64,000 nt of DNA from Chloroflexota bacterium (GTDB lineage Bacteria > Chloroflexota > Anaerolineae > UBA2200): NCBI GenBank assembly GCA_030607875.1, contig JAUWJD010000009.1, positions 29,169-93,168 of the forward strand, written 5' to 3'. Positions 28,287 through 42,978 of this stretch are shown piece after piece (within the stretch, counting starts at the first letter, position 1; each line of letters opens with the position of its first letter). The notes under the pieces were generated by a model. That model was given only the letters and a program-made list of their open reading frames with translations. It was not told where the DNA came from and made no database searches. The translations under genes were made by a program, and so were the position numbers.

Positions 28287-31200
28287 CTAATCCTGCGTCT
28301 CGTCGGACATAAGGGTCTGATAGGCTTCTATCAGGGCCTTTTTGTACTCCTCAAGAGACGGTAGTCCGGCTTCCCTCCGCCTCTTGTCAACATTCGCTTC
28401 ATCTTCGATGGGCAGAGGCACGAACTCGCCATCCTTCCTCTCTAATTGTGTCCCGTATACTTGCTTTTCCCCCTCGTTAATGAGCACCCGGTCCGTCAAA
28501 TAGGCAACGTTTACCATGCGTGCTTCGAATGTCTCTGCCGCTTGTTTGAGGAGTTCCAAGCATTGTTTCTGGAAGGCAAGATCCGAGTTTGCGTGCTGCA
28601 CCAGGAGCCATGCCGCATCAGCTCCTGCCCCGCCTACCACACTGTAGCCAGGCCAACCATACTCCTGAACGATTTCTCGCATTCGGGCGGTGTTCCTGGC
28701 GTTCACCTCCTCCCACTTTATCTCAAGTGTCGGATCTGTCCCATTGGCCCGCTTCAACTGTTCTATGGCCTCCTGATCCTCGTCGACCATCCTGAGCAGT
28801 TCCTGCTGCAGTTCGCTGTTGAACTTTACTGCCAGAACAGTTTGAGCCTCCTCCGTTCCACCTTCAGGCGTGAGCGGAGTGGGCTTGAAGCTGAGCGTAG
28901 GCTCGGCATGTACTGGGGGCTGCACCTCGCGCTTCTCCGAAGAAAGACCGCTCATCAGCCGAGCTGCCACGTCAGCAACCCTGCCCGCCCCAGCCAGGTG
29001 CTCAGGTATGATTGCCTCAATGCTGTCTGTGGGGAGATGAGTGGTCTCCAGAACATCGGACGCGCAGAGGACGATGATAGGCATAGGCCGATCGGAATAA
29101 CTTTCCGAAAAACTGTACTGATGGGGCGAATGACTCTGCAACGTGATCTTGACGCCCAGTTTTCGCGCCGCCTTGCGCAACTGCGGCAGCACGCCATAGC
29201 TGCCCCACTCCTGCAGACCGAGTGCTGCATCAGGGCCATAAGCGATGCTGTCCAGATGGATCACGGCGTAGAGGCTGTACCTGGGCAGGAGCCCGCTATC
29301 CAGGAGATGCTGTATCCCCGAATCCAAGCCACCCTGCTCGACGTTCCCCCAGGCAGCGAACACAACGGTATGTTCTGGTTGATAGCCCTGTTCTTTCCAG
29401 ACACGGGCAATCTCCAGCAGAGCAGCTACGCCCGAGGCGTTGTCTACGGCGCCGGGATAGAGCCTCCCTTCCAGGTCACGACCCAGCCCGTCATAGTGCG
29501 CGCCAATGACCACCACCTGCTCAACTTTGCTCTTCCCCGGGATGGCTCCCAGGACGTGGATGCCCTTTGTTTCCGCCTGACGCTGCAGCGGGTAACTCAT
29601 GCGCACGCGCCCCGTCGTCTCCCAGACTTTGCCCTGGCCCTCGGGCAAACCCTCTACTTCTTCCTGCAGCTCCTTCAAGTGGAGGCCCAAATGCCCTAGC
29701 AACCGCTCAGCAGCCTCGTCGCTGATCTTGAAACGAGCAAAGGGGTCTGCTCCCATGAAGGAGAAACCTCCGCGAGGCAGGCTCCACCGTCCGAAGTAAT
29801 GGGGGATAGCATGTACAACGATCAGCGTGCCCACGCGTGGAGGCGGTTCGGGCCGCGGATCCTCCTGCAGGGCAGAGTAAAAGTCCAAGCCGAGGACAAC
29901 TTCTGCCTTCCCTGGCTCTCCCATTTGCAGCAGACGTATCTCAAATGGTCCCGTGCTCATGGGCTGATGCTGGCCCACCACCGTCAGGCGGCCCACGACG
30001 GGAAAAGGCGGCAGGCCAGCGCTGACATCCACAACGAAATCCTCCAGATAGGCAAATTCTTCCAGGACGTTGCCTTCTTGATCCTTCAAGATCAATTGCG
30101 GAATCTCTGCGAAATCCAGGCGTTCGAACTCGAACTGCTGGAAGTACGTCTCCCCGTCCCCTGCTGGTTCCAGCCCTGCCGCAGCGAACTGCTTGGCGAT
30201 GTACTCGGCAGCACGACGTGCACCTTCTGTCCCTGCTCGCCGTCCCTGCAATTCTTCACTCGTGAGATAGTGCACGTCTACCAGGGCACGTTCGACGTCA
30301 AAGGCGCGGGCCTGCCGAGCGTAAGCCACAGCAGGGCCAGTGTTATCCAGAATAAGCCACACGACTACAGCCACAGCAGCGGCCGCCATCAACAGGCGCT
30401 TGAAAGGCAGGCTGGCCAGGTTCACGCCACTGCGCTCCACCAGTTCCTGCAAACCCATGCCCAGCAAGTTAAAGCCCAGGACGGCGACGAAGAAAGCCGC
30501 CGCAGGATAGAGGGTCATCCAGGGATAGCTGCGAGCATAGCGCCAGGAGTTGGAGAGCATCGCCCCCCATTCAGGCACGGAGAAATAGACCACGGGCCGG
30601 TCGTACACATCCAGCGTACTGATGCCGCCCCCGATGAATATGCCCACAAACCCCAGTTCACCCAGGGTGAGCAAAACGCTGCCCATCTCCAGGGTGGCCA
30701 GGGCCAGCAGGGAGGGGAAAACGTTGGGCAGCACGTGCCGTGTGATGATCTCTGGAGTGGAGAGCCCTACTGCCCGTGCGCCCTCGATAAAGGGGCGTTG
30801 GCGGATGGTGGCAAACTCGCCACGTACAGTCTGGGTGACCTCAGCCCAGCCCAGAAAACACAGGGCAACCACAAAAGTGGATAGCCCCTTCTGGATGCCG
30901 AAAGCCAGGATCAGCAGCACACCCAGGATCAGGGAGGGGAAAGCTGCCTCAGCCCCGGCCACGCTCATAATCGCCCGATCCACAGCTCGTCCGTGGTACC
31001 AGCCAGACACGGCCCCCAGCGCGAAGCCGACGATCACTCGCACGGCCATCACTGCCGCAGCGATGGACAGGGTCTGGCCCGCACCACAGATCAGCAGGCT
31101 GAGCAAATCCCGCCCCTGCTGATCCGTCCCCAGCAGAAAGTGCGCTGACGGTGGGAACGGGGGTGTGCGTGTCACGCCATCCACCTCCAGGAACCAGGTT

Positions 31201-31331
31201 TGTTCTGTGGGGTCATGCGGCGCGAAACGCGGGCCGAAGGCAGCGGCGACGATCAGGGCCAGCACAATGAGCCCTCCGCTGATCAAGGGACCACTGGTCA
31301 GGCCATGCCACAGACGAGCCCGGCGGCGCAT
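28287..31331 (-). CDS. fusion protein: OppC/DppC-type ABC permease + extra TM helix + M28 Zn-aminopeptidase + uncharacterised C-terminal domain
   Basis: The N-terminal roughly 330 aa form a binding-protein-dependent permease (six hydrophobic segments and a conserved cytoplasmic loop). A seventh helix (LLMAAAAVAVVVWLIL) follows, then an M28 domain (VVIGAHYDGLG, AVDNASGVAALLEIA), then an unassigned tail of about 170 aa. The start is chosen at MRRRARL, overlapping the end of the OppB-like gene, because the 100 codons upstream overlap that gene. Confidence 0.7.
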   Translation of the reverse strand: MRRRARLWHGLTSGPLISGGLIVLALIVAAAFGPRFAPHDPTEQTWFLEVDGVTRTPPFPPSAHFLLGTDQQGRDLLSLLICGAGQTLSIAAAVMAVRVIVGFALGAVSGWYHGRAVDRAIMSVAGAEAAFPSLILGVLLILAFGIQKGLSTFVVALCFLGWAEVTQTVRGEFATIRQRPFIEGARAVGLSTPEIITRHVLPNVFPSLLALATLEMGSVLLTLGELGFVGIFIGGGISTLDVYDRPVVYFSVPEWGAMLSNSWRYARSYPWMTLYPAAAFFVAVLGFNLLGMGLQELVERSGVNLASLPFKRLLMAAAAVAVVVWLILDNTGPAVAYARQARAFDVERALVDVHYLTSEELQGRRAGTEGARRAAEYIAKQFAAAGLEPAGDGETYFQQFEFERLDFAEIPQLILKDQEGNVLEEFAYLEDFVVDVSAGLPPFPVVGRLTVVGQHQPMSTGPFEIRLLQMGEPGKAEVVLGLDFYSALQEDPRPEPPPRVGTLIVVHAIPHYFGRWSLPRGGFSFMGADPFARFKISDEAAERLLGHLGLHLKELQEEVEGLPEGQGKVWETTGRVRMSYPLQRQAETKGIHVLGAIPGKSKVEQVVVIGAHYDGLGRDLEGRLYPGAVDNASGVAALLEIARVWKEQGYQPEHTVVFAAWGNVEQGGLDSGIQHLLDSGLLPRYSLYAVIHLDSIAYGPDAALGLQEWGSYGVLPQLRKAARKLGVKITLQSHSPHQYSFSESYSDRPMPIIVLCASDVLETTHLPTDSIEAIIPEHLAGAGRVADVAARLMSGLSSEKREVQPPVHAEPTLSFKPTPLTPEGGTEEAQTVLAVKFNSELQQELLRMVDEDQEAIEQLKRANGTDPTLEIKWEEVNARNTARMREIVQEYGWPGYSVVGGAGADAAWLLVQHANSDLAFQKQCLELLKQAAETFEARMVNVAYLTDRVLINEGEKQVYGTQLERKDGEFVPLPIEDEANVDKRRREAGLPSLEEYKKALIEAYQTLMSDETQD

Positions 31332-31348
31332 CTCCAGCGTCCTCTGCG

Positions 31349-32296
31349 TCACGCTCCACCTCCCGGCACTGCAGTTCGCAGCCGTGGATCCGCCCAGCGG
31401 TAGCCCAGTTCCAAGAGGGCATTGATGACCAGAAAGGTAAAGCCCAGGCTTAGTACCAGGCCCGTGGTAGTGTTGATGTCGTAGCTGCGGATGGCATCCA
31501 AGAGGGCAGTGCCTACGCCAGGCCATCCGACGAACACCTCCGCTATGGGCAATGCAGCCAGGCTGTAGCGCATCGAGAGGCTGAGCGCGGTGAGTATCGA
31601 AGGAGCGGCGTTGCGGAAAGCGTGACGCCATACTACCCAGCGCCTGGAAAGGCCCTTGGCATAGGCAGTACGGATATAGTCCTGATCGAGGACATCGGCC
31701 AGGGCTAGATAGGTCATGCGCGCCATGCGAGCGATGGACGGTGCCGCCAAGACCAGCGCAGGCATGACCAGATGCTCATCCCAGCCAAATCCCCCTACCG
31801 GCAGGAGCCTCGTCCCGGTAGCACGGTAGAAACGGACAAGCATCACCTGCAACAGCAAAGCCAGGAAGAAGGTAGGCGCCGAGATGCCCACCAGGGTGGA
31901 GGCGATGATGCCCACGGAGAGGCGCGAGTGGCGTAGCAAAGCGGCCAGGGTGCCCAGGGGTATGCCAATAAGCGCTGTCAGCAGCAGCGCGACAGCCAGC
32001 AGACCCATCGAACGTGGATAATACCCCCGCAGCAACTGGGCGACCGGCCTGGTCGCCATCCGTCGACTCCGCCGCGTCCAAAGCGCGCTGTTTCCCAGGT
32101 CACCGCGAATGGCGTGGCTCAAGTATTCCCCTGTGCCAATCGCACTCTGGCGCAGTATCACAGAGGCAGGCGCATAGCCCCTCGCTCTGGCCGCTCCCAG
32201 AGTCAAATGGCACAGGAAAATGATCAACACAAGGGTGAAAACAGCGGCAATCAGATGTCGGAACGGCAAACGCAAGGTGCATTCACTCCGAAGCAA
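31349..32296 (-). CDS. OppB/DppB-type ABC transporter permease
   Basis: The ORF is 315 aa with the BPD_transp_1 layout. It starts 17 nt after the anti-sigma stop. Confidence 0.8.
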   Translation of the reverse strand: MLRSECTLRLPFRHLIAAVFTLVLIIFLCHLTLGAARARGYAPASVILRQSAIGTGEYLSHAIRGDLGNSALWTRRSRRMATRPVAQLLRGYYPRSMGLLAVALLLTALIGIPLGTLAALLRHSRLSVGIIASTLVGISAPTFFLALLLQVMLVRFYRATGTRLLPVGGFGWDEHLVMPALVLAAPSIARMARMTYLALADVLDQDYIRTAYAKGLSRRWVVWRHAFRNAAPSILTALSLSMRYSLAALPIAEVFVGWPGVGTALLDAIRSYDINTTTGLVLSLGFTFLVINALLELGYRWADPRLRTAVPGGGA

Positions 32297-33694: not shown

Positions 33695-34009
33695 ATGCTG
33701 CCGAAGCGGGAGTCATTGAAGGAAGGAGAAAGTATCGATTCGACGGAGAAGCCCTTCAAGGAACTGACCAAAGCCCCAGGCGTGCCTAGCTATGAAAGTG
33801 AGGTTCGGGCGGTCATCCGCCGCCACCTAGAAGCGGTAGCGGCGATTGAGCGCGACCGGTTGGGCAGCATCACTGGCGTAAAGCGCGGCTCAGCGGATTG
33901 GCCGCAAGTAATGCTCGCCGGGCACATGGATGAGGTCGGCTTTGTGGTCAGCCTGATCACCGATGAGGGTTTTATCCGCATAATCGCTTCGGTCAGCTCG
34001 ATAGGCTGA
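33695..34009 (+). pseudogene. M42 aminopeptidase 5' remnant
   Basis: About 290 bp are roughly 90% identical to the leader plus first ~95 codons of the M42 gene at 41908. The ATG is mutated to ATC, and the frame runs into an unrelated sequence and a stop. Confidence 0.6.
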
Positions 34010-34747
34010 CCGCGCCCATAGAGTAACCACTGTCGGGGCTGATGGTCTGCCCGGTAATGAAGCCTGCCTCTCTTGACGCGAGGTGGAGCACCAACGAGGC
34101 CACCTCTTCGGCTTTCCCCAGCCGCCTCATAGGCGTGGCTTCCTTGATCTTCTCCGGCCTCTCGGCTCTGAGCCCCTCCAGAGACCTTGTCTCCACAAAG
34201 CCGGGTGCCACGACGTTGACCGTGATGCCCAGAGGGGCAACCTCCTGGGCTAGGGCACGGGTCAGGCCGATGACGCCGGCCTTGCTGCCGAGTAGGCCGC
34301 CGCACCCGCACAGCCAGCGAGGCCGCAGATGGAAGCGATGTTGACGATGCGCCCCCTGTGCTGGCGGAGCATCACTGGTAGCACGGCCCGCAGGCAGTTG
34401 AAGGTGCCAGTGAGATAGAGCGCCAGGGTGCTATGCCACTCCTCATCGCTTAACATCTGCAAGGGGTGGGGGGTCACTTTCGCTCCAGCGCTGTTGACCA
34501 GGATGTCGAGGCGGCCGAAGTGATCGACCAAGGCTTTCACCATGGCCTCCACCTCCGCCCTCTGGGTGATATCGGCTGGCAGGGCCAGGCCCTGTGTTGC
34601 AGCAGCCACTCTCTCGGCTGCAGTGGGATCCAGGTCGTTGATCCCCACGATGATCCCCTCCTCCGCAAAGAGGCGGGCCACAGCCTCGCCAAGGCTGCCG
34701 CCCGCCCCGCTAATGAGCGCCACCTGACCCTGCAGATCGTATCTCAC
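33993..34747 (-). pseudogene. SDR-family oxidoreductase (FabG-like) interrupted by a frameshift
   Basis: The N-terminal 160 aa (GTG start, VALISGAGGSLG, NSAG) read in one frame to AYSAA. The C-terminal part (GITVNVVAPGFVETR...ITGQTI) is in another frame. A single missing base in an AAA run near 34282 restores ...AAKAGVIGLT... Confidence 0.6.
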
Positions 34748-34784: not shown

Positions 34785-35615
34785 CTACATTTTCCCCGCC
34801 TTGAACTTCTCGACCTGCTTCCGGATGGCGGGCTCGGTGGGAAGTCGTTCGATGCTGGAGGCGCCAAAGAAGCCGACCACCCCCTCTGTATGGTCGTAGA
34901 TGTACTGGGCATCAGGCGGTTCGGCAATCGGACCACCGTGGCAGAGCACCAGAATGTCTGGATTGACCTTCTTCGCAGCATCGTGCATGGCCTGCACCCG
35001 CTTCGCCGACTCCTCCAGCGTCAACACTGTCTTGGCACCAATGGCTCCCTTGGATGTCAGACCCATGTGAGGGACTAGCACGTCGGCGCCGGCTTTGGCC
35101 ATTGCGACCGCGTCCTCCTCGTCCAAGACGTAGGGGCAGGTCAGCATGTCCAGTTCGTGGGCCAGTCGGATCATCTCCACCTCGAGGGCGTAGCCCATGC
35201 CCGTCTCCTCCAGGCCCTGCCGGAAGACGCCGTCAATCAGCCCGACGGTGGGAAAGTTCTGGACGCCGTCAAAGCCCATCTCCTTGATCTGCTTGAGGAA
35301 CGTGGGCATCAGTCGGAAGGGATCAGTGCCGCAGACGCCCGCCAAGACCGGCGTGTCCTTGACTACTGGCAGCACCTCAGCCGCCATCTCGACGACAATG
35401 GCGTTGGCGTCGCCGTAGGGCATCAACCCGGCCAGTGAACCCCGCCCAGCCATGCGGTAGCGGCCGGAGTTGTAGATGATGATGATGTCGGCCCCGCCGC
35501 GCTCGGCGAACTTGGCCGAGATGCCGGTGCCGGCCCCACAGCCAATGATCGGCTTGCCTTCGGCCACGGTCTGACGCAGCTTGCGCAGACTCTCTTCTCT
35601 TGAAATGTACGGCAT
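34785..35615 (-). CDS. PF09370-type TIM-barrel protein (PEP-hydrolase-like, Tm-1 C-terminal-domain homologue)
   Basis: The ORF is 276 aa. The [45 protein letters not shown] motif is typical of this family. Confidence 0.7.
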
Positions 35616-35660
35616 GATAGTGTCCTCCTTTTCTATGTGTGTTACTTGTTACATAGCGTA

Positions 35661-36872
35661 CTACTTGGCCGACAGGAATTCCAGGAGTTTGTTGGCCACG
35701 GCGTCGGCAAACTCGTCGTCGTTGATGTTGTTGTCCATCTCATACACCGGGATGTCGGGCCGCACATGCTTCTTGATAGCATCGTATAGGGCCTTGTCCG
35801 CCTCCGGCCACCAGAACTCCTTGCCCTCGGCATCCAGCATGGATACGCCCTGCAGCGGCAGGAAAAAGGCCACCGGCGCCGTGGACTTGTTGGCCTTCTC
35901 GGCCAGGATGCGGCCCAGCTCCGCGTTCTCCTCTGGGGTGGTGCGCATCAAGGTTACGTTGGGGTTCCAGTGGTAGAATCGCCGCCCTTTGTATTTCTCC
36001 GGCACCGTTTCCGGGGCCCAAAAGTTGGCCATGTCCAGACAGCCGGGGACGATGACCTGAGGCACTCCCTTCTTGGCAGCTGCATCCAGGCGTGTTGGGC
36101 CCGCTGACAGCACGCCGCCCACCAGCTCGTCCGCCCACTCCGTTGTGGTGATGTCCAGCACCCCGTTGACGTAGCCTTCCTCTATCAAGCTCTCCATAGT
36201 CTGCCCGCCGGTGCCCACTGCGTGGAAGATCAGCACCTCGTAGCCGTGCCTTTCCATCGTCTCGCGGCAGCGATTGACGACGGCAGTGGTGTTGCCAAAC
36301 ATCGAGGCGGCCAGCAAGGGCTTTTCCTCGATCTTGGGCGCTGGCGTCTCCACCATGCCCACCACCGCGCCCACCGCATTAGCGTAGATGCGGGCGCTGA
36401 TACGGTTGACCCCCGCCACGTCCACCACTGATGGAAACATGACCACGTCTTTGGTCCCCACGTAGGCTTTGGTGTCGCCCGAGGCCAGGGTGCTGACCAT
36501 GACTTTGGGGACACCCAGGGGCAGAGCGCGCATGGCAGAAGTGCCAACAGCCGTACCCGCTGAACCGCCCATGGCGATCACGCCGTCAATCTTGCCCTGG
36601 TCGTAGAGCTCCTTGACCACCTTGGCGATGCCTTTGGTCATGACATCCATGGCCAAGCCTCGGTCTGCCTTCTCTTGGAGCTCCTTGAGGCTGACGCCGC
36701 CGGCCTCGGCCACCCTCTTGGAGGGGATGTCGGCTTTGAAGCCGGGCTCGCCCACAACGCTGCTGTCTATGACCAAGGCTGCGTGCCCGCGCTGCTTGAT
36801 CTGCTCCTTGACGAAAGCGAACTCCTTGCCTTTGGTATCCAAGGCCCCAATCACTGCAATAGTCTTCGGCAT
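35661..36872 (-). CDS. UPF0261 family protein (Tm-1 N-terminal-domain homologue)
   Basis: The ORF is 403 aa and begins MPKTIAVIGALDTKGKEFAFVKEQI, the family N-terminal signature. A GGAAAGGAG RBS precedes the start. Confidence 0.8.
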   Translation of the reverse strand: MPKTIAVIGALDTKGKEFAFVKEQIKQRGHAALVIDSSVVGEPGFKADIPSKRVAEAGGVSLKELQEKADRGLAMDVMTKGIAKVVKELYDQGKIDGVIAMGGSAGTAVGTSAMRALPLGVPKVMVSTLASGDTKAYVGTKDVVMFPSVVDVAGVNRISARIYANAVGAVVGMVETPAPKIEEKPLLAASMFGNTTAVVNRCRETMERHGYEVLIFHAVGTGGQTMESLIEEGYVNGVLDITTTEWADELVGGVLSAGPTRLDAAAKKGVPQVIVPGCLDMANFWAPETVPEKYKGRRFYHWNPNVTLMRTTPEENAELGRILAEKANKSTAPVAFFLPLQGVSMLDAEGKEFWWPEADKALYDAIKKHVRPDIPVYEMDNNINDDEFADAVANKLLEFLSAK

Positions 36873-36877
36873 TTGTT

Positions 36878-36975
36878 TTTCTCCTTTCCATAACTAAGAG
36901 TCGTGAATCCCAAACAGCCGCGCTGCGTTTTCGGCAGTTCATCATCTCCTTTCCATGATTAGGAGTCGTGAATGC
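36878..36975. repeat. about 50-bp tandem duplication spanning the amidohydrolase 3' end and UPF0261 RBS junction
   Basis: Copy A (...GCTGTTTGGCATTCACGACTCCTAATCATGGAAAGGAGATGATG) and copy B (...GCTGTTTGGGATTCACGACTCTTAGTTATGGAAAGGAGAAAAACAAATG) are read here on the minus strand. Confidence 0.55.
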
Positions 36976-37876
36976 CAAACAGCCTGGCTGCGTTTCCGCC
37001 CAGGATGTCGGCTTTCTCGACGGCTGAAAGATGCGGATTCTCGCGGACTAGATCGATCATGTAGCGGATACTCACCTGGTTGGCCACGGCCGGATAGTCC
37101 GAGGCAAACAGGATGTGCTGGAAGCCCATCGTCTCGCGGATGCGCTCCACGCGCCATTCCCGCTCGACCAGCCAGGCTACGGCCGCCAGGTCCGCCCACA
37201 CGTTGGGATAGTCCGAACCCAACTGCAGCGCTTCCTCAAACCAGATGCATGGTTCATCCTTGCTGTAGCTGCCCAGGTGGGCCAGGATAATGGGCACTCG
37301 ATGATACTTCTCCAGGACAGGACGCAGCCGTTCCGGGTTGGCGTCCACCGACAGTGCTCGGGCATCCCAGGGAGGAGCCCCACAGCCAGTGTGGATCAGG
37401 ATAACCCGGCCAGTCTCTTCGCACCAGGCGCACACGCGCCGAAAATTCTCACTGTCAGCCGGGTCAAAGAACTGGGCAAAGGGCAGCAGCTTGACGCCCC
37501 GCAGCCCTAGCTGCTCGATCTCGGCCAGCTTCGCCTCTACGTACCCGGCGTCTTTGCACAGGTTCACCGACCCGAGGCCGATGAAGCGGTCGGGATGGGC
37601 GGCCACCATGTCGGCCACGATGCGGCTGGTCACCTTGGGCGTCAGCTTCTGCACCATGACCGCTTCGACTTCTGACCAGAAGACCCGATGGGCTGCCGGA
37701 GTCTTGAAAAAGCGGAAGCGGGTCTGCTGACACAGGTCAGGCCGTTTGATGTCCGCCGGGTCGGTGTCCACCGCCAGCAACACCGCATGGGTGACACCAG
37801 CCCCGTCCATCTCTGCCAGGAGGGCATCGGCACCCATCTTGGGGTGGACGTGGGCATCTACAATCAGTTCATTCAT
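36959..37876 (-). CDS. amidohydrolase-2 family metal-dependent hydrolase (TIM barrel)
   Basis: The ORF is 305 aa with the N-terminal DAHVH metal-binding motif and a C-terminal SDYP. Confidence 0.75.
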   Translation of the reverse strand: MNELIVDAHVHPKMGADALLAEMDGAGVTHAVLLAVDTDPADIKRPDLCQQTRFRFFKTPAAHRVFWSEVEAVMVQKLTPKVTSRIVADMVAAHPDRFIGLGSVNLCKDAGYVEAKLAEIEQLGLRGVKLLPFAQFFDPADSENFRRVCAWCEETGRVILIHTGCGAPPWDARALSVDANPERLRPVLEKYHRVPIILAHLGSYSKDEPCIWFEEALQLGSDYPNVWADLAAVAWLVEREWRVERIRETMGFQHILFASDYPAVANQVSIRYMIDLVRENPHLSAVEKADILGGNAARLFGIHDS

Positions 37877-37896
37877 TGCTCCGCTCCCAATAAACT

Positions 37897-38652
37897 CTAA
37901 TGCATCGTAAAGCCGCCGTCTACGGCGTAGACTTGGCCGGTGATGTAATCGGCCTCGTCGGAGGCCAGGAAAACCACCAGCCCCGTCACGTCCGCGGGCT
38001 GTCCCAGACGCGCCAGAGGCACCTGATACCTGGTGTAGAACTCCAGGGCACTGGCCGGGAAGGTCTTTAAGGCCGTCTCTGTTTCGATGATGCCGGGAGC
38101 GATGGCGTTAACGGTAATACCCAAAGAAGCGACCTCCCGCGCTAACGCCTTGGTCAGGCCAATCACTCCAGCTTTAGCTGCTGAGTAGGCCACCAGGCCG
38201 ATTCCTCCCACTAGCCCGGCCACTGAGGCCACGTTGACGATGTGGCCTTTGCGCTGCTGGCGCATGACGGGCAACACCTCTTTGCAACAAAGAAAGACCC
38301 CTTTGAGATCCAGGGCCATGACCTGATCCCAGTCCTCCTCGCTGAGGGCGGTGAAAGGCTTCATAGGGAAACTGCCAGCGTTGTTGATCAGGATGTCCAG
38401 ACGTCCCAGGGCATCCATAGCCGCGGCCATCATCCGCTTTACATCCTCGCGGCAGACGACATCAGCTTGGAGGACCAGAGCGCGACGCCCCAGGGCTTCG
38501 ATTTCTCTCCCCGTCTCCGCTGCCGCTTGTGCACGACGGCGATAGGTGACCACCACGTCTGCCCCTTCCCGGGCCAGGGCCAGGGCGATGGCTTTGCCAA
38601 CCCCCCGGGAGCTGCCCGTGACCAGGGCCACTTTGTTCTCCAGCCTCATCAA
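37897..38652 (-). CDS. SDR-family oxidoreductase (FabG-like)
   Basis: Has TGSSRGVGKAIA (Rossmann fold), NNAG and the YSAAK catalytic motif, then ...PGIIETE. Confidence 0.85.
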   Translation of the reverse strand: MMRLENKVALVTGSSRGVGKAIALALAREGADVVVTYRRRAQAAAETGREIEALGRRALVLQADVVCREDVKRMMAAAMDALGRLDILINNAGSFPMKPFTALSEEDWDQVMALDLKGVFLCCKEVLPVMRQQRKGHIVNVASVAGLVGGIGLVAYSAAKAGVIGLTKALAREVASLGITVNAIAPGIIETETALKTFPASALEFYTRYQVPLARLGQPADVTGLVVFLASDEADYITGQVYAVDGGFTMH

Positions 38653-38900
38653 TGGTCCTCCTGGGTCTCGGTGACGATGCCCACCACATCACCCACCATC
38701 ACCTTGGATCCCGGAGGGGCGAGTATCTCCTTCAACACTCCGTTGACAGGGGCAGGCACGTAGAGGGTGATTTTCTCGGTCACTGCTTCCACCAGGTCTT
38801 TGCCTTTCTGCACCCTTTCGCCAGGGGACTTGAACCAGGCGGTGATGGTCAGCTCGTGAGATCCATCAACAGTGGAAGGAATTACTAGTTTGTGTTCCAT
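38649..38900 (-). CDS. stand-alone biotin/lipoyl-attachment domain protein (83 aa)
   Basis: Aligns along its whole length with an E2 lipoyl domain. A Lys sits at the modification position (VEAVTEKITLYVPAP against VEGDKASMEVPSP). The gene overlaps the SDR start by 4 nt. Confidence 0.7.
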   Translation of the reverse strand: MEHKLVIPSTVDGSHELTITAWFKSPGERVQKGKDLVEAVTEKITLYVPAPVNGVLKEILAPPGSKVMVGDVVGIVTETQEDH

Positions 38901-39562
38901 GTTAGCTCCTGCAGGCTTATCTTCTCAAACTCCAAAGCAAAGGTCTGTCCCAGGATATCGCGCAGGCGATCTCTGATCTCTGCCATTTCAACTCCCCGCC
39001 CCAGGGTTTCCCGCAAAGAAGTGACCGGCATGTGAGGCACACCGCAGGGATTGATCCAGGAGAAGGGCTCCAGGTCCAGATCAACGTTGATAGAGAACCC
39101 GTGAAAGGTAAAGCCGTGGCGCACAGCGATACCCACGGCGGCGATCTTTTTCCCTTCCAACCATACACCGGGGTAATCTTTCTTCTTCCCAGCCTCGATG
39201 CCGTAACCGTGCAAAAGCTGAAGCAGGATATCCTCCAAACGATGCAGGTACTGATTGGCATTGAGGTGAACGTCGCCCAGGTAAAGCAGGGGAGAGACGA
39301 TCAGTTGACCGGGGGCGTGGTAGGTCACGTCGCCGCCACGGTTGCCTCTCAGAACCTGGATGCCCAGGTGGGCCAGTCCCTCCCGCGAGGCGAGGATATT
39401 GGCTTCGCTCCCGCTTCTGCCAACGGTAAAGACGGCGTAGTTCTCCTGTAAGATAACCGTCGGCATCCACCGCCCCGCCATGTACGCTTCCAGGATCTGC
39501 TCCTGGATGGCAAAGGCAGGGGCGTACTCTATCAAGCCCAAATCGAGCCAGCAGACTCGCAT
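38885..39562 (-). CDS. lipB: lipoyl(octanoyl) transferase
   Basis: Starts at MRVCWLDLGLIEYAPAFAIQ, the LipB N-terminal signature, and contains the HAPGQLI and AVGIAVRHGFTFHGFSINV catalytic regions. Overlaps the lipoyl-domain gene by 16 nt. Confidence 0.75.
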   Translation of the reverse strand: MRVCWLDLGLIEYAPAFAIQEQILEAYMAGRWMPTVILQENYAVFTVGRSGSEANILASREGLAHLGIQVLRGNRGGDVTYHAPGQLIVSPLLYLGDVHLNANQYLHRLEDILLQLLHGYGIEAGKKKDYPGVWLEGKKIAAVGIAVRHGFTFHGFSINVDLDLEPFSWINPCGVPHMPVTSLRETLGRGVEMAEIRDRLRDILGQTFALEFEKISLQELTWNTN

Positions 39563-39613
39563 ACACTTTCTCAAGAACGCCGATAGGCAGGGTGGTTTGT
39601 TGAAGTAGATGCA

Positions 39614-39652
39614 GGCACCCCTGACCCCCACTGTGTGGCAGGTAGGGGTGCC
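39614..39652 (-). terminator. GC-rich hairpin between DUF362 and lipB, with no U-tract
   Basis: GGCACCCCT ... AGGGGTGCC forms a 9-bp stem with a 21-nt loop. Confidence 0.3.
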
Positions 39653-39672
39653 ATCTCTAGCCAGTTACGCAG

Positions 39673-40974
39673 CTACTTGTACAACGCTTGCAGATCGCCG
39701 TTGAGTTGGGCGAAGATGTAGACGGGTGCACAGCCGGGATACTCGGTCACCGATTTAGCCAGCTTCATAGCCTTCTCCACCTTGCCCTTGCTGGGGAAAT
39801 ACTTCCAGCAGTCGCCAGCAACGAAGAGGTGCTTCCCTTTGGCCATCTCTGGGTCGAAATCAGGGACGCCGCCAGCAATGATGACAATCTCCCCCACCTT
39901 GTCGATAAAGTCCTTGAGGTCAATGCCGCTGACGTTGAAACCATCGAGCGCCCCGCGTGTGTTGGCGAAGCAGCCGGGGCAAGTCTGCTGCACGATGACG
40001 TGGATGCCAGGGATCAGCCCGGTCGGGTCGATCATCGGACGCTTGAAGAAGGTGCGCACTTCGGCGATGGGGACGCCCACGATCTCGATCTTGTCAATGT
40101 CCCGCTCGCCCAGGCCCTCGGTGGCAGCGATGCGCACGGAAGGGATTTCGATGGTCTCAAAGCCCATCACGTAGGCGGTCACGGCGTCCACAGCCACGGT
40201 ATCGGTGCCAGCGATGAGCAGATTCATCTCCAGTGGCGTGCCAACATGCGGTCCCTGTCCCTCCATAGCGATGATGCCGTCAACGAGGGTCAGGTCCGCT
40301 TTTCTGATACGATACATGTCGGCAAATTTCTGCCCGAGGTCAATGCGGTGGATATCCTGCTGTTGCCCGCTGGGGTGCACGTTGGGGACGATTCCGTTCC
40401 AGTTCTTGAGTCCCAGGCTGACCGTGCCCGCCAGGTGCACTTTCATTTTGGGTAGATTGATGACCCGGTCGGCGTCGAGGAAAGGCTTGAAAACCTGGGC
40501 GTGTTTGAACAGCAAGGCCCCAGGGATATCCACCTCGACCAGTTCTTCCTCATCAAAGTAGATGACCCGGTCGGCACCGCCCCGCTCGGACGCTGCTTTC
40601 ATACCAGACGCCTCAAAAGCTGGCCGGGCTCGCCCTACCTGCTGCCCCAGAGAGGGATTGTCACCCACCCAGACCTCTTTAGCCTTGGATTTCTCCTTCA
40701 GGAAGGCAACCATGCCCTCGAGGACACGAGGTTCAGTCACAGTGTAGGACTCCGCCGGCGCCTGGAAGGCCAGGTTGGGCTTGATCAGCACCGTCTCGCC
40801 CTCTTTGACGATGTTGTCAATGCCGCCCACGGCCAGGTTGATGGCCTCCTCGATCTTGGCCTTGACCTGGGCGATGTCCTCATCGTAGCGCACGAATTTG
40901 CTCGTTGGGGGCAGGAACTCCTTGGTCCCCTTGAGGTGCCCCGTCTTGACGATCGCAACCTTTGGTTTTGCCAT
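39673..40974 (-). CDS. DUF362 domain protein
   Basis: Starts at MAKPKVAIVKTG with an AGGAGG RBS. Has the VLIKPNL motif typical of DUF362 and is about 433 aa. Confidence 0.65.
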   Translation of the reverse strand: MAKPKVAIVKTGHLKGTKEFLPPTSKFVRYDEDIAQVKAKIEEAINLAVGGIDNIVKEGETVLIKPNLAFQAPAESYTVTEPRVLEGMVAFLKEKSKAKEVWVGDNPSLGQQVGRARPAFEASGMKAASERGGADRVIYFDEEELVEVDIPGALLFKHAQVFKPFLDADRVINLPKMKVHLAGTVSLGLKNWNGIVPNVHPSGQQQDIHRIDLGQKFADMYRIRKADLTLVDGIIAMEGQGPHVGTPLEMNLLIAGTDTVAVDAVTAYVMGFETIEIPSVRIAATEGLGERDIDKIEIVGVPIAEVRTFFKRPMIDPTGLIPGIHVIVQQTCPGCFANTRGALDGFNVSGIDLKDFIDKVGEIVIIAGGVPDFDPEMAKGKHLFVAGDCWKYFPSKGKVEKAMKLAKSVTEYPGCAPVYIFAQLNGDLQALYK

Positions 40975-41847
40975 TTCTTTGCCTCCTGCAAAAAGTAGTA
41001 ATTTGACCTTCATGGCCGATGAGGTGTGGCTTTTAGCCATTCTTTTTGTTGCTTAATACCCCCTTTCTAGTATGAAATGTCTCGACTGAGCTCGACAACG
41101 TCTCAGCTACGGCAAACTGGACGATAGTCCCTGGTAAGGTCTGGAGATGAAGCTAGAGGGGGTGTTACCGTCCCCTCTGGCCAGGCAAAAAAACCTTTTC
41201 AGCCCTGCTCCTTCGCCTTGGGGAACTGGGCCAATACCAAATCGAAGAAGTAGGCACCGGCGATAGCACCTAGGATGGGCACACTACAGTAGTGCCCCAG
41301 AGCTCGTTGGGCGGCCCCAGTTCACGGGCGGCAGCTCCTTGGTTTACCCACGCCGCAATGCAACCAGCGGCTTTCTACGAATGTTTTCCTCTATGGATCA
41401 CCCACTCCCGTGCTGCAAGAGCCGATCCTCTTGGAAGCAGATTCCTACGAGGAGATCGCGTTATGCAGCCTGGGCCCATCAAAAGAAAAGACCTTCCAGC
41501 ACTCGAAGTGAAGAAAGGTCTACTCTTGTCCGCCGCAACCCTCCGTTGGGTAGCACAACTTTGAATATCGGCTAGAAAATGGGAACTGTTGCATCTTCCG
41601 TTATTTACATTCTAGCACAAAACTCTGATTTGTCAAGTACAGACTCGGTCCCAAAGTGTGTTGGTGGGTTTTCGTGGCAGGATTGACCACTGCTGGTAGT
41701 TGTGATGGGCGTTACTTGGGTACTATCCCTGGTACCACTCAACCGGTGCGTTGTCGATCAACACAATCTGGAACCGAGTCCAAGTACAAAGCTTCTGCAA
41801 TAGTTTTGGGCTTTCGCCACACTTCGGAAGAAGGAGCAGCTCTGCAT

Positions 41848-41876
41848 TTGATCTTCACTCCTTTTGCTCATATAAT
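41848..41876 (+). promoter_or_regulatory. candidate sigma-70 promoter (TTGATC-17-TATAAT)
   Basis: Near-consensus hexamers lie about 30 nt upstream of the AGGAAGGAG RBS and ATG of M42 paralogue 4. Confidence 0.45.
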
Positions 41877-41907
41877 TGCACCAGCGCTTATTAAGGAAGG
41901 AGAAGGC

Positions 41908-42978
41908 ATGGATTCAACGGAGAAGCTCTTCAAGGAACTGACCAAAGCCCCAGGCGTGCCTGGCTATGAAAGTGAGGTTCGGGCGGTCATCCGCCGCCAT
42001 CTAGAAGCGATAGCCACGATTGAGCGCGACCGGTTGGGCAGCATCATCGGCGTGAAGCGCGGCTCAGAGGATTCGCCGCGAGTGATGCTCGCCGCGCACA
42101 TGGACGAAGTCGGCTTTATGGTCAGCTTGATCACCGACGAGGGATTCATCCGCTTCGTCCCCTTGGGCGGCTGGTGGGACCAGGTCATGCTAGCCCAGCG
42201 TGTGGTGATCAAGACGTCTGCTGGCGACGTATTCGGGCTGCTGGGGGCCAAGCCCCCGCACCTGCTGGAACGGGAAGAGGCCCAGAAGTTGGTGAAGAAA
42301 AAGGACATGTACGTAGATATCGGAGCCACCAGCGCCGACGAAGTGAAGGCGTGCGGGGTGCGGCTGGGTGATCCGATCATTCCCATCTGTCCCTTTACCA
42401 GCTTGAGCCCCGGCCAGACCTACATGGCCAAAGCCTGGGACGATCGCCTGGGGTGCGCGCTCTTCATCCAGGCCATCGAGCGCCTGAAGGGCCAGGCACA
42501 CCCCAATGCGGTCTACGCCGTAGGCACCGTGCAGGAAGAAGTGGGTTGTCGGGGGGCCAAGACCAGCGTGCATAACATCAACCCAGACGTGGCGATCATT
42601 CTGGAAGTGGACATCGCTGGCGACGTCCCCGGCATCAAGCCTGAGGAATCAGCGATAAAGCTCGGCAAGGGGCCTAGCTTGTTGCTGTACGATGCGCGCA
42701 TGATTCCCAACCTTCGGCTGCGCGATTTGGTGATTTCCATAGCCGAGGAGAACGACATCCCGTTGCAGTTCTCGACCATGCGCGGCGGCGCGACAGATGG
42801 ATCAATGATCCACCTGCACAACGAGGGTGTCCCCACTGTGGTGCTCGGCGTCCCCACGCGGCACATTCACAGCCATGCCGGCATCCTGCACCGTGCCGAC
42901 TACGACCACGCGCTCGACCTGCTGGTTAAGCTGATCATGCGCCTGGACGAAGCTACAGTGCGACAGCTCACCGAGTAG
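41908..42978 (+). CDS. M42 family aminopeptidase, paralogue 4
   Basis: The ORF is 356 aa, begins MDSTEKLFKELTKAPGVPGYESEV and carries AAHMDEVG. Confidence 0.85.
   Translation: MDSTEKLFKELTKAPGVPGYESEVRAVIRRHLEAIATIERDRLGSIIGVKRGSEDSPRVMLAAHMDEVGFMVSLITDEGFIRFVPLGGWWDQVMLAQRVVIKTSAGDVFGLLGAKPPHLLEREEAQKLVKKKDMYVDIGATSADEVKACGVRLGDPIIPICPFTSLSPGQTYMAKAWDDRLGCALFIQAIERLKGQAHPNAVYAVGTVQEEVGCRGAKTSVHNINPDVAIILEVDIAGDVPGIKPEESAIKLGKGPSLLLYDARMIPNLRLRDLVISIAEENDIPLQFSTMRGGATDGSMIHLHNEGVPTVVLGVPTRHIHSHAGILHRADYDHALDLLVKLIMRLDEATVRQLTE

Follow-up and report, generated by a model that had tools for sequence, protein, structure and literature searches.

A DUF362 gene followed by a lipoyl-carrier module takes the position of larA in proposed lar-type nickel-pincer operons related to a Chloroflexota locus

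A cluster of seven genes on contig JAUWJD010000009.1 of a Chloroflexota bacterium (Anaerolineae, UBA2200; assembly GCA_030607875.1) encodes a protein of the family DUF362 together with a small lipoyl-domain protein and the enzyme LipB. The stretch of DNA analysed, here termed the window, comprises 64,000 nucleotides (nt; positions 29,169 to 93,168 of the contig, forward strand), and all coordinates are given within the window. The conserved unit of the cluster is formed by DUF362, LipB, the lipoyl carrier and a FabG-like short-chain dehydrogenase/reductase (SDR), with DUF362 as its most conserved member. [quoted passage not shown] By sequence the DUF362 protein is not of the LarA family. The chances are about even that the module is a variant of the lar system in which DUF362 takes the place of LarA and works with a dedicated lipoyl arm and the SDR.

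Seven open reading frames (ORFs) lie on the minus strand between positions 34785 and 40974, and in a profile scan all seven products exceed the Pfam gathering scores. Starting at the 5′ end, the gene for DUF362 (433 amino acids, 39673-40974; PF04015, E = 2.7e-50) is followed by those for the LipB octanoyl(lipoyl) transferase (225 amino acids, 38885-39562; LplA-B_cat, TIGR00214), the stand-alone lipoyl-domain carrier (83 amino acids, 38649-38900; PF00364, Biotin_lipoyl) and a FabG-like, NAD(P)-dependent SDR (SDR1; 37897-38652, with the gene caller's start at 38649; PF00106 and PF13561). LipB and the carrier overlap by 16 nt and the carrier and SDR1 by 1-4 nt, and the strand continues through amidohydrolase-2, UPF0261 and PF09370 genes with gaps of 20, 86 and 45 nt. 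An initial annotation, made from the sequence alone, had proposed these seven genes with their domains and spacings, and they are confirmed by ORF and Pfam/NCBIfam scans. It had set DUF362 apart from the other six behind a hairpin. A local 9-bp stem is present in the DUF362-LipB intergenic stretch, but as a terminator it was rejected; the fold is no stabler than that of shuffled sequence (z = -0.87) and there is no T-run. DUF362 heads the conserved core. The whole 8.2-kb region is matched at 99.99% identity, without gaps, by an independent assembly (L001, run SRR12623517; the L numbers used here are labels of related loci on other contigs), so the features described are not assembly noise.

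Relatives were drawn from scans of species-representative genome and JGI metagenome collections with a DUF362 alignment, together with look-ups of individual homologues. The resulting 102 loci form 42 groups at 95% DUF362 identity, and gene order was counted in the 31 groups with at least 2.5 kb of sequence 3′ of DUF362. The order DUF362-LipB-carrier-SDR is present in 24 of them. One further group has a LipB remnant only, one (Synergistota) has an unknown 296-amino acid gene and the UPF0261/PF09370 pair, and five have none of these. The module spans at least five phyla (Chloroflexota, Desulfobacterota, Spirochaetota, Bacillota and Synergistota), with named hosts in the Anaerolineales, Desulfobacteraceae/Syntrophobacterales (including an Olavius symbiont), Spirochaetaceae, Eubacteriaceae (complete genome CP130740.1), Erysipelotrichaceae and Synergistaceae, and it is frequent in anaerobes from sediments, digesters and symbionts. 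Conservation of gene order, which the initial annotation had put forward as a check on its six-gene operon (LipB to PF09370), therefore holds for DUF362-LipB-carrier-SDR across these phyla and excludes amidohydrolase-2, UPF0261 and PF09370. The six-gene 'operon' of the window is a mosaic around a four-gene core.

Exact copies of the carrier occur in only two short public contigs (L001 and L002), with the same gene order. The nearest relatives (L003-L008), whose carrier is 83% identical, have the order MIP-DUF362-LipB-carrier-SDR1-SDR2-MIP-Dak1-Dak2, where MIP is a channel and Dak1 and Dak2 are dihydroxyacetone-kinase subunits; no amidohydrolase, UPF0261 or PF09370 lies between SDR1 and SDR2. 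Where LipB is only 64-67% identical, DUF362-LipB-carrier-SDR is preceded by genes for a zinc-dependent alcohol dehydrogenase and an ABC transporter of sugar type. The neighbours found elsewhere are again MIP channels, dihydroxyacetone-kinase subunits, the sugar-type ABC transporter and the zinc-dependent alcohol dehydrogenase, with MimR/AcoR-like sigma-54 activators and GAF histidine kinases, and in Synergistota additionally a class II aldolase, a 2-hydroxyacid dehydrogenase and an FGGY kinase. Judged by these neighbours, the substrate is likely to be a small polyol, a hydroxy-ketone or a hydroxy-acid. Components of 2-oxoacid dehydrogenases or of the glycine-cleavage system (E1, E2 core, E3, GcvP/GcvT/GcvH) were not found in the Pfam-annotated neighbourhoods of the relatives.

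The lar genes were detected with hidden Markov models built from the LarB, LarE and LarC proteins of the clusters. LarB, LarE or LarC is encoded near the core in 10 of the 20 core-bearing groups that have at least 4.5 kb of downstream sequence, while none is present in the four core-less groups with equal flank (4/4). The NCBIfam equivalogs identify these proteins in two lineages (LarE at 322 and 340 bits against 150; LarB at 301 against 175), and the LarC of the relatives is recognised by Pfam Ni_insertion (PF01969). Wherever ordered listings exist the lar genes lie 3′ of the SDR, mostly directly, with a single gene (the FAAL-PCP fusion described below) in between in L030 and L037. Directly 3′ of the SDR, L010 encodes a PP-loop protein, then an AIR-carboxylase-like and a nickel-insertion protein. 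In the short contigs L009 and L089 the lar genes are likewise 3′ of the SDR. Three loci illustrate the variation, with the orders MIP-DUF362-LipB-carrier-SDR-LarB-LarE-LarC-MIP-Dak1-Dak2 (L106), MIP-DUF362-LipB-carrier-SDR-LarE-LarB-LarC-AMP-ligase (L063) and DUF362-sigma54 activator-LipB-carrier-SDR-FAAL-PCP-LarB-LarC (L037, Eubacteriaceae).

The lar operon of Lactiplantibacillus plantarum has the order larA-larB-larC-larD-larE, with LarA a racemase, LarB, LarC and LarE the proteins that make the cofactor, and LarD an aquaglyceroporin. The relatives resemble it in having LarB, LarE, LarC and a MIP channel in one string with a LarA-fold protein, and the channel, of LarD type, often lies 5′ of DUF362. 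They differ in that the LarA-fold protein is DUF362 (PF04015), with an extra four-cysteine C-terminal domain, and not DUF2088, and in that LipB, the carrier and the SDR are inserted between DUF362 and the lar genes. No LarA-like ORF was found in any of about 100 loci. The arrangement in the relatives is a lar operon with DUF362 in the position of LarA and three extra genes. This coupling, and the LarA fold of DUF362, were missed in the initial annotation, while its view that the system is undescribed stands: in the literature searched we found no description of a lipoyl module paired with nickel-pincer genes, and neither DUF362 nor lipoyl proteins were connected with the nickel-pincer cofactor in any paper found. 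A 'LarG lipoyl carrier protein' from a Pelobacter genome paper was discarded as a precedent; it is GcvH-like, lies near act genes and is unrelated to the nickel-pincer lar genes, and a literature follow-up on LarG returned the human LARG gene only.

The fold of DUF362 was predicted with AlphaFold2 from an alignment of 32 orthologues (mean pLDDT 84). On comparison of the model with the PDB using Foldseek, the six top matches are all LarA-family chains, beginning with the malate racemase 7S91 (E = 1.8e-5, probability 1.0) and followed by 9Q3K and 9Q3J. The protein matches PF04015 only, and not PF09861/DUF2088, so that membership of LarA is not indicated by sequence; DUF362 and the DUF2088 of LarA are placed in a common Pfam clan, CL0471 (PMC11770544). 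The LarA sequence used, and its numbering of H174 and K184, agree with 5HUQ. We take H174 of LarA to be the catalytic base and K184 to be the cofactor tether. In LarA the LLIS strand is followed by six residues, H174, nine residues and K184, and in DUF362 the RVIN strand is followed by six residues, H180, nine residues and K190. The greedy path of a non-significant hhalign alignment pairs H180 with H174 and K190 with K184, and a gap-free reading by eye agrees. Four residues (K178, H180, K190 and N191) do not vary even among DUF362 members that are just 23-34% identical. The counterpart of the LarA nickel ligand His200 is ambiguous between H200 and H209. The C-terminal domain contains four near-invariant cysteines (C332, C335, C389 and C415), which suggests an Fe-S or zinc site.

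DUF362 is 64-90% identical across Chloroflexota, Desulfobacterota, Bacillota, Synergistota, Spirochaetota and Ignavibacteriales, compared with lower values in the same clusters for LipB (40-66%), the SDR (45-70%) and the carrier (32-57%). Such high conservation suggests strong constraint, horizontal spread, or both. From its predicted two-domain alpha/beta LarA fold, its conserved His-x9-Lys motif and its gene context, DUF362 is probably the user of the nickel-pincer cofactor in these operons; that it binds this cofactor we regard as fairly probable.

LipB of the cluster scores 137.1 bits with the TIGR00214 equivalog (cut-off 83.55), matches PF21948 with E = 1.6e-41 and gives an end-to-end alignment with Thermus thermophilus LipB (2QHS, E = 6e-42). 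Its KIAAVGI and NPCG segments align on KLCAIGV and VPCG of 2QHS. We take these to be the catalytic lysine and cysteine motifs of LipB (K-I/L-x-A-x-G and PCG). They are kept in cluster LipBs from other phyla, and the protein looks like an ordinary octanoyltransferase with its catalytic motifs intact. The carrier scores 47.5 bits with PF00364 (cut-off 22.1). Its top PDB matches are all E2 lipoyl domains, with Lys43 on the lipoyl-lysine of 1LAB, 2L5T and 7B9K, and its best family-level matches are the E2 lipoyl domains of SucB and AcoC. The motif T(E/D)KI around Lys43 (here TEKI) is invariant in 18 orthologues from several phyla, bearing out the lysine that the initial annotation had placed at the modification site; the orthologues in the conserved core are 79-83 amino acids in length. 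From these features the carrier is classed as lipoyl-type, and not biotin-type. LipB probably loads octanoyl onto K43 of the carrier.

That LipB and the small carrier form a dedicated pair outside 2-oxoacid dehydrogenases and glycine cleavage, as the initial annotation had suggested, agrees with their conservation in the 24 of 31 groups. In the 64-kb window no E1, E2 catalytic domain, E3 or GcvH was detected, nor a further LipB, a further lipoyl domain or a LipA-like set of motifs; a second canonical lipB together with GcvH elsewhere was what the initial annotation thought would weaken a dedicated role. Additional evidence comes from three Anaerolineales loci (L016, L066 and L067) that have lost the carrier and both SDRs by deletion but retain intact DUF362, UPF0261/PF09370, MIP and Dak1/2. 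There LipB (L016 5002-5736) loses homology after about residue 132 and has no catalytic lysine or cysteine. With the carrier deleted, LipB survives just as a remnant and so evidently serves no purpose in these loci, as would be expected if the two are a dedicated pair.

Genes for fatty-acyl supply recur beside the module. A fatty-acyl-AMP ligase (FAAL)-like enzyme fused to a phosphopantetheine carrier domain (FAAL-PCP) is encoded 3′ of the SDR in L030, L036 and L037 (L037 15065-16915; hosts Eubacteriaceae and Synergistaceae), a bona fide FabF is present in another Firmicute (L058), and a fab cluster is found in Erysipelotrichaceae (L033 and L035). This recurrence favours octanoate, and then lipoate, as the group on Lys43. 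The FAAL-PCP gene of L037 occupies the position held by LarE in L063, and the protein may be a private acyl donor for LipB in a LipB-based salvage route. In the two Erysipelotrichaceae loci the core lies tail-to-tail with the fatty-acid synthesis cluster (L033 13136-20614), which encodes FabZ-like, FabF, FabG, FabD and FabK-like proteins and a fused biotin carboxylase-carboxyltransferase of 1024 amino acids.

SDR1 scores 260 bits with the FabG subfamily NF009466 (cut-off 222), and its orthologues keep TGxxxGxG, NNAG, S-Y-x3-K and the adenosine-side Asp or Arg. Judged by these motifs it is a normal NAD(P) enzyme and unlikely to bind the pincer. A role for the SDR as the pincer-binding protein, by analogy with the aldo-keto reductase (AKR) NphT, was considered and is less likely, as the full dinucleotide-binding motif is kept in the orthologues.

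We infer the following scheme, of which the shuttle step is the most conjectural part. DUF362 with the nickel-pincer cofactor would carry out hydride transfer on a small compound taken up by the cell, a hydroxy-carbonyl, a polyol or a hydroxy-acid; the neighbouring genes suggest glycerol- or dihydroxyacetone-like, lactate-like or acetoin-like compounds as candidates. LipB would take octanoate from an acyl-phosphopantetheine and place it on Lys43 of the carrier; the donor would be the acyl carrier protein (ACP) of fatty-acid synthesis or, in some lineages, the neighbouring FAAL-PCP fusion. The lipoyl group would be completed by a lipoyl synthase encoded elsewhere. The lipoyl arm could then act as a dithiol/disulfide or acyl-accepting shuttle between DUF362 and the NAD(P)-dependent SDR, and amidohydrolase-2, the UPF0261 kinase and PF09370 might provide downstream accessory steps tied to DUF362 rather than to the lipoyl part. 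A functional role for the carrier alongside DUF362 and the SDR seems on balance probable. A specific redox or acyl shuttle between the three is a tentative proposal that we would rate as doubtful.

A number of observations weigh against this reading. The link to the nickel-pincer cofactor is made through relatives, since the 64-kb window yielded no LarB, LarC or LarE; adjacent lar genes are also missing from half (10/20) of the core-bearing groups with adequate flank. The Foldseek TM-scores of DUF362 with the LarA chains are just 0.36-0.38, values that would fit differing orientations of the predicted domains. Searches of the PDB with phmmer (single sequence) and hmmsearch (profile) gave no matches for DUF362, and hhalign against a three-sequence LarA alignment gave a probability below 1%, even when distant DUF362 members were included. 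The equivalence of the histidine and lysine with those of LarA comes from a manual and greedy alignment, and not from structural superposition. DUF362 orthologues persist without LipB and carrier in Synergistota and in L016, L066 and L067, so the carrier is not obligatory and DUF362 can persist without the lipoyl part. No LipA is encoded near any cluster examined. Lastly, we know of no chemistry that joins a dithiolane to NPN.

Several other explanations have been considered. The LipB and carrier could be general lipoylation machinery, with the carrier as an octanoyl relay in the manner of GcvH in the Bacillus LipM/LipL pathway, and just happen to lie next to DUF362 and the SDR. The cluster LipBs are indeed ordinary by identity (37-47% between those of Firmicutes and Chloroflexi, and 34-44% between canonical Thermus LipB and all of them), some genomes have FabF or a fab cluster next to the module, and the window has no other LipB. 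On the other hand, DUF362-LipB-carrier-SDR keeps its order in at least five phyla despite changing flanks, LipB and the carrier are located between DUF362 and LarBEC within one closely spaced same-strand string, and carrier, SDR and LipB function are lost jointly in L016, L066 and L067. The module is moreover present in Firmicutes, where the housekeeping octanoyltransferase is normally LipM, not LipB. A housekeeping role is on these grounds unlikely.

LipB might alternatively move another thioester-activated acyl group, such as a 2-hydroxyacyl group or the pyridinium-dicarboxylate precursor of the pincer, onto the carrier and so generate a tethered substrate or cofactor, with activation by the FAAL-PCP fusion or by a LarE-Cys thioester. 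AMP-binding enzymes do recur directly 3′ of the SDR or of the lar genes (FAAL-PCP in L030, L036 and L037, in the place that LarE has in L063; the ligase of L063), LarA and NphT tether NPN via a lysine (PMC13524815), and LipB mainly reads the acyl-phosphopantetheine arm and not the ACP protein (PMC9307952). Yet LipB is by sequence a typical octanoyltransferase, the AMP-ligase resembles fatty-acyl-AMP ligases, DUF362 retains its own candidate tether in K190, and most clusters are without an AMP-binding gene. We assign a low probability to this reading.

It is rather improbable that the carrier and LipB, perhaps with the SDR, aid the supply of the cofactor, whether by providing sulfur or reducing power from a dihydrolipoyl dithiol to a [4Fe-4S]-type LarE, as a nickel chaperone, or by keeping the oxygen- and oxidation-labile pincer reduced. 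The module does lie directly beside LarE, LarB and LarC, and the LarE of L010 has a CxxC + CAC cysteine pattern, which we take to be typical of cluster-dependent LarE. Lipoate-binding proteins take part in sulfur handling in the sHdr-LbpA system (PMC6067878), and NPN-loaded LarA homologues are labile (PMC11796402). However, canonical lar operons need no helper of this kind, conservation of the module is just as strong in groups without an adjoining lar gene, and the SDR would have no obvious role.

The initial annotation had read the six genes from LipB to PF09370 as one small-molecule pathway dependent on a lipoyl or octanoyl carrier; UPF0261/PF09370 and the amidohydrolase would then act on a carrier-bound intermediate. 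In this genome the six genes do run in one direction with little space between them, no convincing terminator interrupts them, and the amidohydrolase recurs in a related cluster. But the exact order is confined to this strain or species (L001 and L002), UPF0261/PF09370 track DUF362 and not the carrier, adjoining DUF362 in the carrier-deleted L016 and L067 and in Synergistota, and SDR2 lies directly 3′ of SDR1 in L003-L008. The comparative data largely refute the single pathway, and we consider it very unlikely. The chance that the 83-residue protein is a biotin carboxyl carrier for a carboxylase is negligible: PF00364 does include biotinyl as well as lipoyl domains and there are weak NCBIfam matches to carboxylase carrier domains (E = 3.5e-4 to 9e-3), but the strong matches are all to lipoyl domains, the motif is T(E/D)KI instead of the (A/V)MKM typical of biotinyl domains, the partner is LipB and not BirA, and no carboxylase or BirA is found in the window or the conserved neighbourhood.

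The preferred reading, a lar variant in which DUF362 works with a dedicated lipoyl arm and the SDR, has counterparts in several known systems. In the GcvH-L/LplA2/SirTM/macrodomain operon of Staphylococcus and Streptococcus a dedicated carrier is likewise co-encoded with a dedicated attachment enzyme in an accessory operon; it differs from the present module in its GcvH fold, LplA ligase and ADP-ribosylation partners, and is not known to have a link to a nickel cofactor. The sHdr-LbpA system (PMC6067878) similarly has a lipoyl protein with its own attachment enzyme outside 2-oxoacid dehydrogenase and glycine cleavage. LbpA is GcvH-like and is loaded by an sLpl(AB) ligase with LipS1/LipS2, whereas here an E2-type domain is paired with LipB; the partner there is an Hdr-like complex, and here it is a LarA-fold protein and an SDR. 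Acetoin and other 2-oxoacid dehydrogenase complexes share the E2-type carrier (SucB and AcoC being its best family matches), and the relatives share with acetoin dehydrogenase the AcoR/MimR-like sigma-54 activators, zinc-dependent alcohol dehydrogenase and SDR. They differ in that no thiamine pyrophosphate-dependent E1, E2 catalytic domain or E3 is found in the window or the conserved neighbourhood.

To our knowledge the families that use NPN are few, namely LarA homologues, an ornithine cyclodeaminase and the AKR-fold NphT. NphT, a nickel-pincer-dependent hydride transferase, was like DUF362 a non-LarA candidate user of the pincer found through adjacency to larBCE, and it has a sugar- or polyol-type substrate theme; unlike DUF362, it has an aldo-keto-reductase TIM-barrel fold and no lipoyl partner. 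DUF362 is not among the families reported in the NphT study, according to which hundreds of prokaryotes make NPN yet lack LarA (PMC13524815). The present analysis nominates the large uncharacterised DUF362 family as a further NPN user, with the His-x9-Lys motif and the LarB/LarE/LarC-bearing operons as handles, and thereby bears directly on what might use the pincer cofactor where LarA is absent. Through its link to uptake genes for small polyols and sugars the module may represent an unrecognised route of carbon use.

A closer association of the two cofactors can be envisaged, in which the lipoyl (or other N6-acyl-lysine) arm is a direct catalytic partner of the nickel-pincer DUF362, exchanging hydride-derived reducing equivalents or an acyl/thiohemiacetal intermediate with its pincer cofactor. 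We regard this as a speculative possibility, one that in its boldest form could have the pincer cofactor or the substrate carried on the carrier lysine. If true, it would be a new partnership of cofactors and a first function for the large DUF362 family as nickel-pincer enzymes. The chance that such a partnership is categorically new enzymology is real but well short of even. A dedicated carrier with its own LipB, outside any 2-oxoacid dehydrogenase, would be another non-classical task for lipoate after the sHdr-LbpA and GcvH-L systems.

Amidohydrolase-2, UPF0261 and PF09370 are variable accessories outside the conserved unit. Amidohydrolase-2 (305 amino acids, 36959-37876, minus strand; PF04909) is 87% identical to the gene that comes after LarE in L060-L062, and so counts as an accessory that recurs; its resemblance to lactonases and decarboxylases of its superfamily (fuconolactonase; 3IRS; LigW) is weak. 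The UPF0261 protein (403 amino acids, 35661-36872, minus strand; PF06792 + PF23189) is of the Tm-1 N-terminal/MarK kinase family. It scores 593 bits with NF002674 (cut-off 335), and matches plant Tm-1 (3WRY, E = 3e-84) and MarK (Saro_1862; 9MPY, E = 9e-69) over its full length. Its D12-T13-K14 corresponds to MarK residues 14-16 by an alignment offset of +2, and the ATP-site lysine position is a lysine (K14). The PF09370 TIM-barrel protein (276 amino acids, 34785-35615, minus strand; PF09370 E = 1e-133) mirrors the C-terminal half of Tm-1-like proteins (PMC5028733), and the two genes, 45 nt apart, form a split Tm-1-like pair. The initial annotation regarded this pair as lacking established biochemistry. 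For UPF0261 this has been superseded, as MarK is an ATP-dependent kinase (2025), the first activity for the UPF0261 domain (PMC12624787). PF09370 matches the uncharacterised Mll9387 (2P10, E = 1e-108). The context of MarK, an aromatic kinase with a phenol-binding pocket that includes His219, His304 and His348, differs from that of the window cluster, as acetovanillone carboxylase genes accompany MarK but none is near the cluster, the context of which is of polyol/hydroxy-acid type.

The UPF0261/PF09370 pair tracks DUF362, and not the lipoyl carrier, which corrects its annotation. It lies directly 5′ of DUF362 in L016, L066 and L067, and about 2.6 kb away in Synergistota with no LipB nearby. 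In L004 a PF09370 gene is present alone, 5′ of the MIP gene. The protein of about 296 amino acids noted above (c13), which has no Pfam or NCBIfam match, lies directly 3′ of DUF362 in Synergistota-type loci (L034 11503-12393; also L031, L041, L095-L097, L099, L114 and L117) and 5′ of UPF0261 in L016 (351-1352). The suggestion that c13 is a distant amidohydrolase-2 was rejected, there being no similarity between them.

The junction of amidohydrolase-2 and UPF0261 carries a tandem duplication of 65 nt (36862-36926 and 36927-36991; 82% identity), located by repeat analysis. The end of the amidohydrolase gene, with its final codons and stop, is present twice before UPF0261 and its ribosome-binding site begin, and the two copies together extend across the amidohydrolase stop as well as the UPF0261 ribosome-binding site and start. 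The duplication may be the scar left where UPF0261/PF09370 joined the amidohydrolase. Beyond PF09370 lies SDR2 (33993-34747, minus strand), a frameshifted copy of the second SDR that is found directly 3′ of SDR1 in relatives; in the window amidohydrolase-2, UPF0261 and PF09370 lie between the two. A tblastn search with SDR2 of L003 gave 79% and 77% identity in two different frames, and the break falls just after the catalytic YSAA. The identical break in L001 indicates a real pseudogene or a programmed shift, and not a sequencing error.

The whole cluster is flanked by a direct repeat of 280 nt (88% identity; 8174 nt from start to start) derived from an M42 peptidase gene. The left border is a partial, diverged copy of the 5′ part (33719-33998, plus strand; ORF 33695-34009, 104 amino acids), and the right border is the matching 5′ segment (41893-42172, plus strand) of the intact gene (ORF 41656-42978; Pfam match from residue 128). 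The public contig L001 ends within these repeats. Recombination at the M42 aminopeptidase gene seems to have brought in the 8.2-kb island or to have rearranged it.

When the entire window was scanned with Rfam, there was one tRNA only, and no riboswitch in the approximately 900 nt upstream of DUF362. The sigma-54 activators and GAF histidine kinases of the relatives are absent at the cluster, near which there is no match to the sigma-54 consensus, and the number of such matches is below chance. The best sigma-70-like promoter match lies at 41609-41636 on the minus strand (TTGACA, a 16-nt spacer and TAGAAT, with a TG extension; a consensus match only). About 635 nt separate it from the start codon of DUF362, which would give a long leader without an Rfam match. 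Elsewhere in the window an ORF of 1114 amino acids (28287-31631, minus strand) reads, by translation only, as an oligopeptide-type ABC permease in its N-terminal half, joined to an M28-like peptidase region and a further C-terminal domain.

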